This document shows positions 12,299 to 12,938 of a stretch of DNA of 26,826 bases, in pieces. The translations under genes were made by a program, and so were the position numbers. Origin of the DNA: Candidatus Colwellbacteria bacterium RIFCSPLOWO2_01_FULL_48_10 (lineage in GTDB: Bacteria > Patescibacteriota > Minisyncoccia > UBA6257 > Colwellbacteraceae); the NCBI GenBank assembly GCA_001817755.1, contig MHIY01000012.1, positions 11,145 through 37,970 on the forward strand, in the 5' to 3' direction. The notes beneath the pieces were generated by a model. It did no database searches. It was not told where the DNA came from and worked only from the letters and a program-made list of their open reading frames with translations. How positions within the stretch are numbered: the stretch's first letter is position 1; every line of letters starts with the position of its first letter.

Positions 12299-12938
12299 TA
12301 GGCGAAGCAAGAGCTTCGCGCTTAACAACCTAAACGGTACCGTAATCTCCGAAATGAAGCCTAAAAGGATATTCGCTCGGAAAGGATGGGGTGCAAACCG
12401 GATTAGATACCCGGGTAGTCCTGTTCTCGCCCTCACGAGGGCCAAGCCGAGTGGCAAAGCAAAATCCTCATGTTCTCGCTTCAATAGCTGGTTACCCCGC
12501 TCCACCTCGCGGAAAAGGAAACCAAGCCGAATGGAGCGAGGATCAGGCACAAGCAAACCTGCCCAGTGACGTTGTACGCGCCGAATTGAAGAATCTTACT
12601 AGGCGTTCGCTCGTTAAACGGCGGGAGGAGTCTCCCCAGGCGGGTGTGTAAACGCCGCGGCCGGGGAGTTCTTCTGAAATCCAAGACCGCAAGGTCTTGG
12701 TTGGGAGAGGAGCCGATTCAAACCCGGCCGGTACCACTTGTTCCTTCTTTACCTAATGGGGCAAAGTCTGATGAGGATCTTTCAGACCACCACACCAACA
12801 ACATCCATAATCCTCATGGTGACATAGCCGGGCTTTCACCTGGCGCCGGTTCGATTCCGGTAGCCCCAAATCTGCTCCGACCAGTTTGTCGGAACCCGCG
12901 GCTGATGCGCGCACTTGCGCCCTCAGCCGCATTTATTT
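12299..12938 (+). ncRNA. Large structured ncRNA candidate with rRNA-like modules and a tRNA-like 3' domain; class unassigned
   Basis: Many stems (12302-12319, 12429-12442, 12498-12538, 12659-12729, 12681-12700 with a GCAA loop), 16S h24-like 12388-12421, 23S H68/H69-like 12558-12636, T-arm 12845-12861; bounded by a promoter and a terminator. Ends are approximate. Confidence 0.65.

Follow-up and report, generated by a model that had tools for sequence, protein, structure and literature searches.

The stretch of DNA analysed here (the window, 26,826 nt in full length) belongs to a genome of 0.75 Mb that is 92% complete, and carries bacterial genes for IF-2, RbfA, TsaD and ValRS which, with the source records, identify it as a Patescibacterium from groundwater. 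Between a tRNA-Leu and a tRNA-Cys gene, both on the − strand, lies an 885-nt gap (12228-13112), no part of which is covered by an Rfam family. Within this gap the + strand holds a compact unit (12263-12945) composed of a promoter-like site (TTGACA-18-TATCCT, 12263-12292, +, located by a promoter scan), a structured sequence of approximately 640 nt, and a terminator consisting of a hairpin and a U-run (12898-12945, +). The fold predicted for the unit has an energy of −253.6 kcal/mol, with a z-score of −5.5 on the + strand versus −2.7 on the − strand. Two of its hairpins have GNRA caps, the rRNA-like pieces described below are all in sense orientation, and gene callers placed no sizeable open reading frame in the unit in other assemblies. 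An identification of the unit as tmRNA was rejected, the real tmRNA gene being located on contig C20, as was a hammerhead-like CUGAUGAG at 12767-12774, which has no Rfam support. Elsewhere in the window, a full-length LOOT RNA (Rfam RF03000, 81.5 bits) is found at 243-362 (+), upstream of small open reading frames. In addition, positions 1612-5037 (+) encode a 1141-aa protein with a partial match to the anti-phage sirtuin Dsr1 family (62.7 bits, against a cut-off of 1400) and no Pfam domain.

The unit was recovered from nine assemblies, representing several samples and assemblers, at 100% identity and in the same bacterial gene context. Since these nine assemblies agree base for base, the unit is real. 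Likewise, contigs identical to the unit were found in four further runs, and no variation was observed among all copies.

A sequence-only reading of the DNA had singled out, inside this unit, a module resembling helices H68 and H69 of large-subunit (LSU) rRNA, and the strings on which that reading relied are all in place: cctgcccagtg at 12558-12568, gcgcc at 12578-12582, ggcgt at 12602-12606, taaacggcgggag at 12615-12627 and gggag-gagt-ctccc at 12623-12636. Both conserved rRNA strands, CCUGCCC(R)GUG on the 5′ side and UAAACGGCGG on the 3′ side, occur in the module, in rRNA order and on the same strand, the two anchor motifs taken as one pair being CCUGCCCAGUG...UAAACGGCGGGAG. They correspond, as had been proposed, to the two strands of the H68 base, and are predicted to pair in the rRNA register, as observed for the H68 of 19 archaeal sequences. 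In the H67/H68 base, the 5′ strand (CCUGCCCAGUG, 12558-12568, +) is of the archaeal/eukaryal type and recurs as an exact 11-mer in 49 LSU genes. The 3′ strand of the H68 base forms, together with the 5′ strand of H69, a shared exact 16-mer (CGUUAAACGGCGGGAG, 12612-12627, +), and the 13-mer at 12615-12627 is common to all 49 LSU matches.

The significance of this two-motif match was evaluated on three levels. At its own spacing the two-block pattern occurs a single time in the window, and none of 100 dinucleotide-shuffled versions of the window contained it, even when three mismatches were allowed. In a scan of one genome each from 185,579 species (596 Gb), the pattern with a gap of 35-65 nt was found in 49 stretches. 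All 49 continue into the true H69 loop sequence; thus they are all real LSU genes and none is a non-rRNA sequence. Finally, a covariance model of the archaeal H68-H69 region (R1), built from 19 of the 49 LSU genes, gave the module 29.6 bits (E 5e-5), a score inflated by the bias of a model whose source sequences had been pre-selected via the two anchor motifs. The next match in the window reached 8.4 bits, and the match at the module is the only one in the whole genome. The full Rfam LSU models (RF02540/RF02541) did not report the module, the H70/H71 continuation UAAGGUAGC is absent, and the sequence 3′ of the module is unrelated. Rfam searches of the unit and of the module alone, both at the gathering threshold and with E up to 10, returned no family, the sole result of the permissive search being a weak LSU domain-I match.

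Short lone matches to rRNA are common, and a set of archaeal rRNA loci shares approximately 35 chance 11- to 13-mers with the unit; similarly, a relaxed 20-nt version of the pattern has six chance matches in viral contigs. Nevertheless, a merely accidental resemblance of two short motifs to conserved rRNA is extremely improbable. The module comprises 24 collinear bases with the right spacing and a conserved pairing register, neither the 100 shuffles nor the 596 Gb of genomes yielded a non-rRNA match, and the same unit holds two more rRNA-like pieces (a copy of 16S helix 24 and a domain-I hairpin). Coincidence, which the sequence-only reading had already considered doubtful, is excluded by the shuffles, the species-wide pattern scan and the covariance-model score in combination, and the module almost certainly descends from rRNA.

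The architecture of the H68 base is retained in the predicted fold. CCUGCC/GGCGGG, UGACG/CGUUA and GCGCC/GGCGU are paired at probabilities of 0.87-1.0 whether the whole unit or the local sequence is folded, and the 5′ strand at 12558-12568 pairs with 12620-12625 in the same predicted range. Kept from H68, according to the prediction, are the GCC/GGC closing pairs, the CAG/AAC internal loop (3x3) and, beyond it, five further pairs. In an RNAalifold analysis of 19 real archaeal segments, the basal pairs, the CAG/AAC internal loop, the U-A pair and the G-U pair all came out as in the module. The lower H68 stem, in which the 5′ strand UGACG (12567-12571, +) pairs with CGUUA (12612-12616), falls in the register of columns 13-17/52-56 of the archaeal H68 alignment. 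The U-A and G-U pairs of this stem are retained; the three that follow (A-U, C-G and G-C) are changed on both sides and still paired. Real archaeal segments have a co-varying stem beyond the U-A/G-U pairs, and the three changed pairs of the module occupy the same register. The G-U pairs are compatible with the + strand only.

Distal H68 and the conserved internal loops that it contains are not present in the module. In their place is a nested hairpin resembling LSU domain I (12578-12606, +; stem GCGCC/GGCGU, loop GAAUUGAAGAAUCUUACUA). With cmscan, 12579-12605 was aligned to positions 167-193 of LSU_rRNA_archaea with a score of 6.7 bits and E 2.7 on 106 nt, a match that is weak alone. In the loop, 16 of 19 bases match a motif common to the 26 bacterial and archaeal 23S genes compared, and a match with at most three mismatches is expected 0.01 times per window. 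The nested hairpin has the archaeal U...U variant, and nearly all relatives have G...C. Consequently, the "extended hairpin" noted between the two strands is present, and its description as a plain extension gives way to that of a nested LSU domain-I hairpin (model positions 167-193). The module is a nested mosaic: a second hairpin derived from LSU rRNA, that of domain I, takes the place of distal H68. As this hairpin is enclosed by the H68 base, the observed order cannot have arisen through deletions within an rRNA gene. The base changes are distributed unevenly, with 0 of 24 in the H68 base versus 3 of 19 in the nested loop, which is invariant in the 26 rRNA genes compared. No intron-like sequence was found next to the module.

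Directly downstream, the R1 alignment places GGGAG/CUCCC on the H69 stem, defining a possible H69-like hairpin GGGAG-GAGU-CUCCC (12623-12636, +) with a 4-nt loop, GAGU, versus 9 nt in H69. This hairpin probably does not form: in the partition function its pairs have a probability of ~0, as GGGGAG at 12663-12668 is the preferred partner of CUCCCC. The competing hairpin of the minimum free energy (MFE) fold spans 12626-12675 (+; AGGAG/CUUCU, CUCCCC/GGGGAG, GGUGU-GUAA-ACGCC), is capped by a GNRA tetraloop and has pair probabilities of at least 0.995. When an H67/H68/H69-like three-way junction was forced, the resulting structure was 17 kcal/mol worse than the best fold (−37.3 vs −54.6). Moreover, the conserved H69 loop UAACUAURA, which contacts h44 and the tRNAs, is absent from the module. 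The H69-like stem that had been put forward is thus upheld in its complementarity and in its alignment to H69 by R1, and not in its predicted formation; on these folding predictions, the H69 reading of GGGAG/CUCCC is unproven.

The variants present in the H68 base differ from those of the host lineage. An archaeal label is attached to 44 of the 49 matching LSU genes (DPANN lineages, Asgard, Thermoplasmata, Methanosarcinales and Hadarchaeia). The remaining five are located on short contigs in bacterial bins, and are followed downstream by GGUAGCCAAAUGCC in four cases and by GGUAGCCAUAUGCC in the fifth, sequences which we take to be eukaryote- or Asgard-like. The exact 16-mer at 12612-12627 is shared with the 23S of one Nanoarchaeota and one Pacearchaeota genome (L086, L110). 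Over the 24 positions the module agrees with the archaeal type at 24, with E. coli-type 23S at 21 and with the 23S of its own lineage at 15, in line with the archaeal/eukaryal character claimed for the variants from the sequence alone. In 20 of 20 relatives from the same family and order the 23S reads CCUGACCGAUGC ... GUCAAUGUC(N)GCGGUAACUAUAACCGU, with co-varied changes and differences at 9 of the 24 positions; the counterpart of the 5′ strand at 12558-12568 reads CCUGACCGAUG in these genes. A second covariance model (R2), built from the 23S of ten relatives and representing the lineage's own type, gave the module 6.2 bits, which is at noise level. Since the relatives' 23S differ at 9 of 24 positions, the module is no recent copy of the lineage's own gene, a statement that rests on the relatives, the organism's own 23S being absent from the assembly. 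A search of the organism's own genome with bacterial and archaeal LSU models gave no match, and this blank is weak because the same kind of search missed a real 16S end on contig C16. At the level of its sequence, the H68 base is present in the archaeal/eukaryal version and not in that of this bacterium's lineage.

The module is not the only rRNA-like element of the unit. A copy of 16S helix 24 (h24, the 790-loop) spans 12382-12428 (+), with a score of 30.6 bits against the bacterial small-subunit (SSU) model at 12388-12421, and is 94% identical to the 16S of a relative and 92-100% identical to archaeal 16S genes. In the MFE fold of the whole unit, the h24 copy (12397-12422) appears without the h24 hairpin and is instead engaged in long-range pairing with ACCCGG/CCGGU near 12722-12732; the h24 hairpin and the long-range pairing (12711-12732) are mutually exclusive folds. 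The 11-mer of the module presumably includes 23S positions 1835-1837 as GCC. In the ribosome, intersubunit bridge B2b consists of the h24 stem and the H68 base (PMC11040002), and the contact joins 16S 783-784 with 23S 1835-1837 in E. coli numbering (PMC4538834). Since h24 and the H68 base touch in B2b, the two largest rRNA pieces of the unit are natural contact partners. The unit also contains a T-arm/acceptor piece, a tRNA-like 3′ domain in which 20-22 nt are identical to two of the genome's own tRNA genes. A further candidate module, AAUAGCUGGUU at 12482-12493 (+), is identical to a conserved LSU motif near position 800 and was rejected, a 12-mer of this kind being at noise level. In its longer form AAUAGCUGGUU..CCCC (12482-12498, +), the segment matches a motif that precedes H68 by approximately 1,000 nt in archaeal 23S, and lies outside the rRNA-like fold.

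The gene order rbfA, tRNA-Cys, tRNA-Leu is conserved in the family, and the spacer between the two tRNA genes usually measures 2-200 nt. Spacers of 650-1060 nt were found in four relatives (L136, L151, L152 and L157), the counterpart in the window being 12228-13112. Three of these large spacers hold unrelated open frames of 186-201 aa, and the longest frame in L151 has at most 78 aa. As both the size and the content of the spacer vary among relatives, the unit occupies a variable slot. No homolog of the unit was found in any of the collections searched: neither 60 relatives nor 400 genomes of the order gave BLAST matches beyond real rRNA and tRNA genes, exact-pattern scans for the two-module, truncated-H69 and nested forms in genome, metagenome and viral collections were blank, and so was an inspection of synteny through rbfA at 30 loci. 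Likewise, R1 identified nothing beyond real 23S genes in 150 genomes; eight of its matches were checked and lie in real 23S according to known coordinates or Rfam, and the others have the length and score of real 23S. Homologs with covariation, indicative of a conserved structured RNA family, were not found, every copy found being identical, and the literature searched contains no description of such an RNA. One bin of the same order carries a full archaeal 23S with a group I intron (G091:C31:4057-7139, L195), probably through binning contamination. A second archaeal-type H68-H69 match, on contig C69 of the same bin, is probably contamination too.

Another rRNA fragment of archaeal type is located elsewhere in the genome. 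At C25:11232-11377 (− strand; L012:1501-1646) a 146-nt SSU rRNA piece lies in a 700-nt non-coding gap, flanked by a Mur-ligase-like gene and yebC. This piece, which from its model positions we take to correspond approximately to helices 34-40, scored 114.8 bits with the archaeal SSU model versus 83.3 bits with the bacterial one, and archaeal 16S genes are its best BLAST matches. It does not resemble the 16S of the organism itself, the 3′ part of which (model positions 951-1533) is found at the start of contig C16 (C16:1-538; L174), with a group I intron at 654-1453. A whole-genome search with RF00177 omitted this 16S part on C16, and blanks from that search need to be read with care. Outside the rRNA-like parts, the C25 unit and the unit described here, on contig C12, have no similarity above noise.

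The rRNA genes of the candidate phyla radiation (CPR) are rich in mobile insertions with homing endonucleases, including insertions at 23S positions 1917 and 1931, beside H69 (PMC11270868). Similar insertions, located after UAAGGU (approximately position 1931), were found in the 23S of relatives (L061 and L062) and of DPANN archaea (L096, L112, L121 and L133), with similar openings G...UGCCUUA. This agreement in position and opening sequence suggests that the UAAGGU insertions represent one intron family common to Patescibacteria and DPANN. Shared rRNA insertions of this type thus offer a plausible route for archaeal exon flanks into a CPR genome.

The descent of the module from rRNA is secure, and the interpretations differ in what became of it. 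The best reading, which we put forward tentatively, is that the unit is transcribed into a structured RNA, with the module serving as a mimic of rRNA; the choice of a functional mimic RNA rather than an inert relic is close to evenly balanced. In the mimic reading, the + strand of the unit would be transcribed as a stable structured RNA, and the module would fold as a single long irregular hairpin (12558-12625) presenting the H68-base loop. Action would then occur by molecular mimicry in one of two ways. The module may offer a ribosome-interface surface to a factor or a ribosomal protein, or it may dock on the h24 copy, its natural B2b partner, and in this way aid the folding of the RNA. The pieces would most likely have been taken from foreign (archaeal-type) rRNA DNA and subsequently remodelled. 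The promoter-like site, the terminator, the z-score of −5.5, the GNRA caps, the uneven base change, the B2b partner modules, the precedent of OLE RNA and the second archaeal-type piece on C25 count in favour of a mimic. Conversely, the lack of a homolog, the variable slot, the disappearance of the H69 loop and the silence of the full Rfam LSU models count against it.

Relative to the archaeal LSU H67-H69 region (RF02540, domain IV), 11 nt of the module's 5′ strand and 13-16 nt of its 3′ strand are identical, and the closing pairs, the internal loop, the lower-stem register and the 5′ strand of the H69 stem are the same. However, the module lies outside an rRNA gene, distal H68 including the B7a contact region is exchanged for a domain-I hairpin, the 9-nt H69 loop is reduced to 4 nt, H70/H71 are missing, and the full Rfam model is silent. 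OLE RNA, an ornate bacterial ncRNA of approximately 600 nt, provides a precedent for mimicry, as its P6 element mimics the 16S anti-SD/SD duplex and binds bS21 (PMC12054373). The unit, as a putative ncRNA, is of similar size and likewise has a short exact copy of an rRNA element. OLE, however, is a conserved family with more than 1,500 members, copies 6 nt of the host's own 16S, and has its binding shown experimentally, whereas the present unit is known from a single organism, contains a 24-nt copy of foreign type and has a putative binding role. The operon leaders of ribosomal proteins (L1, L10, L20, S8 and S15) carry autoregulatory rRNA mimics (PMC3616713, PMC6097659) and are likewise examples of rRNA-like modules outside rRNA, serving in that case as decoys for a ribosome component. 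Unlike the present module, which belongs to a stand-alone unit on the strand opposite to the neighbouring genes, they are situated in the 5′ UTRs of the operon that they regulate, and mimic the cell's own rRNA, usually in shape more than in sequence. The CPR/DPANN rRNA insertions (PMC11270868) involve the same organisms and the same 23S region, positions 1917 and 1931 flanking H69, and are a plausible vehicle for exon flanks; in contrast, the module has no adjoining intron or endonuclease sequence and is outside any rRNA gene. Finally, ROOL and GOLLD, large structured orphan RNAs (PMC12286853), resemble the unit in size, dense structure, GNRA-capped hairpins and tRNA-gene neighbourhood. They differ in being widespread families that are not known to contain rRNA copies, and the unit has no Rfam match.

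An inert mosaic relic ranks close behind the functional mimic, and is a serious possibility. The unit would in this case consist of foreign (archaeal) rRNA scraps and a tRNA gene end, unused by the cell and acquired at a hot spot for recombination or integration that lies between two tRNA genes, with its structure inherited from the source helices. Such an origin fits an orphan without homologs in the collections searched, a slot that is variable among relatives, and the loss of the H69 loop. The CPR rRNA insertions with homing endonucleases (23S 1917, 1931; PMC11270868), together with the similar DPANN insertions, would provide the cross-domain route. However, the nesting keeps the helices continuous, and the pieces are cut at helix boundaries. 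The H68 base has no changes in 24 positions, compared with three in 19 for the nested loop, and the promoter-like site, the terminator, the GNRA caps and the z-score of −5.5 likewise argue against a relic. The same is true of the finding that the two largest pieces are natural contact partners, and of the absence of intron-like sequence next to the module.

A protein-less mobile or integrative element is a possible but less likely origin. Here the rRNA- and tRNA-like segments would be copies of past target sites, spare gene ends or the flanks of homing sites, and not mimics acting as RNA. The exact repetition, in the 3′ domain, of 20-22 nt of T-arm sequence from two tRNA genes of the same genome and the position between two tRNA genes point in this direction. 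On the other hand, the unit is present in a single copy in the genome, no terminal repeats were found, and searches of the 60 relatives and the 400 genomes of the order revealed no copies. Furthermore, the rRNA pieces are internal helices and not gene ends, and the C25 unit has nothing in common with this unit outside the rRNA-like parts.

A bolder variant of the mimic reading would regard the unit as a mini subunit interface, in which both sides of B2b, of archaeal type, and a tRNA-like domain together capture or mislead an interface factor or a subunit. Some Patescibacteria are reported to live on archaea, and the factor or subunit targeted by such a mini interface might be that of an archaeal partner or host; we consider this variant improbable. 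Still far less credible is that the unit represents a working piece of fragmented rRNA, or a chimera created when real rRNA reads were assembled: the assembly lacks the organism's own 23S and Logan unitigs break at the h24 copy, but a normal 16S 3′ part is present at C16:1-538, neither the H69 loop nor the remainder of domain IV is present, the 23S genes of relatives are ordinary, the pieces are rearranged and not contiguous rRNA, and the nine assemblies, produced with different assemblers, are identical base for base and extend into the flanking bacterial genes.

If the unit is inert, it would be rare direct evidence of archaeal rRNA gene fragments entering CPR genomes, and would bear on cross-domain rRNA intron traffic and on false 16S/23S signals in metagenome bins. 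If it is instead expressed and used, as in the mimic reading, it would be the first stand-alone bacterial RNA made of several rRNA helices of another domain's type, two of which touch in the real ribosome. In that case rRNA mimicry would extend from single short decoys, such as OLE/bS21 and the ribosomal protein leaders, to a mimic of the subunit interface built from modules, and RNA helices could be shuffled in the manner of protein domains.
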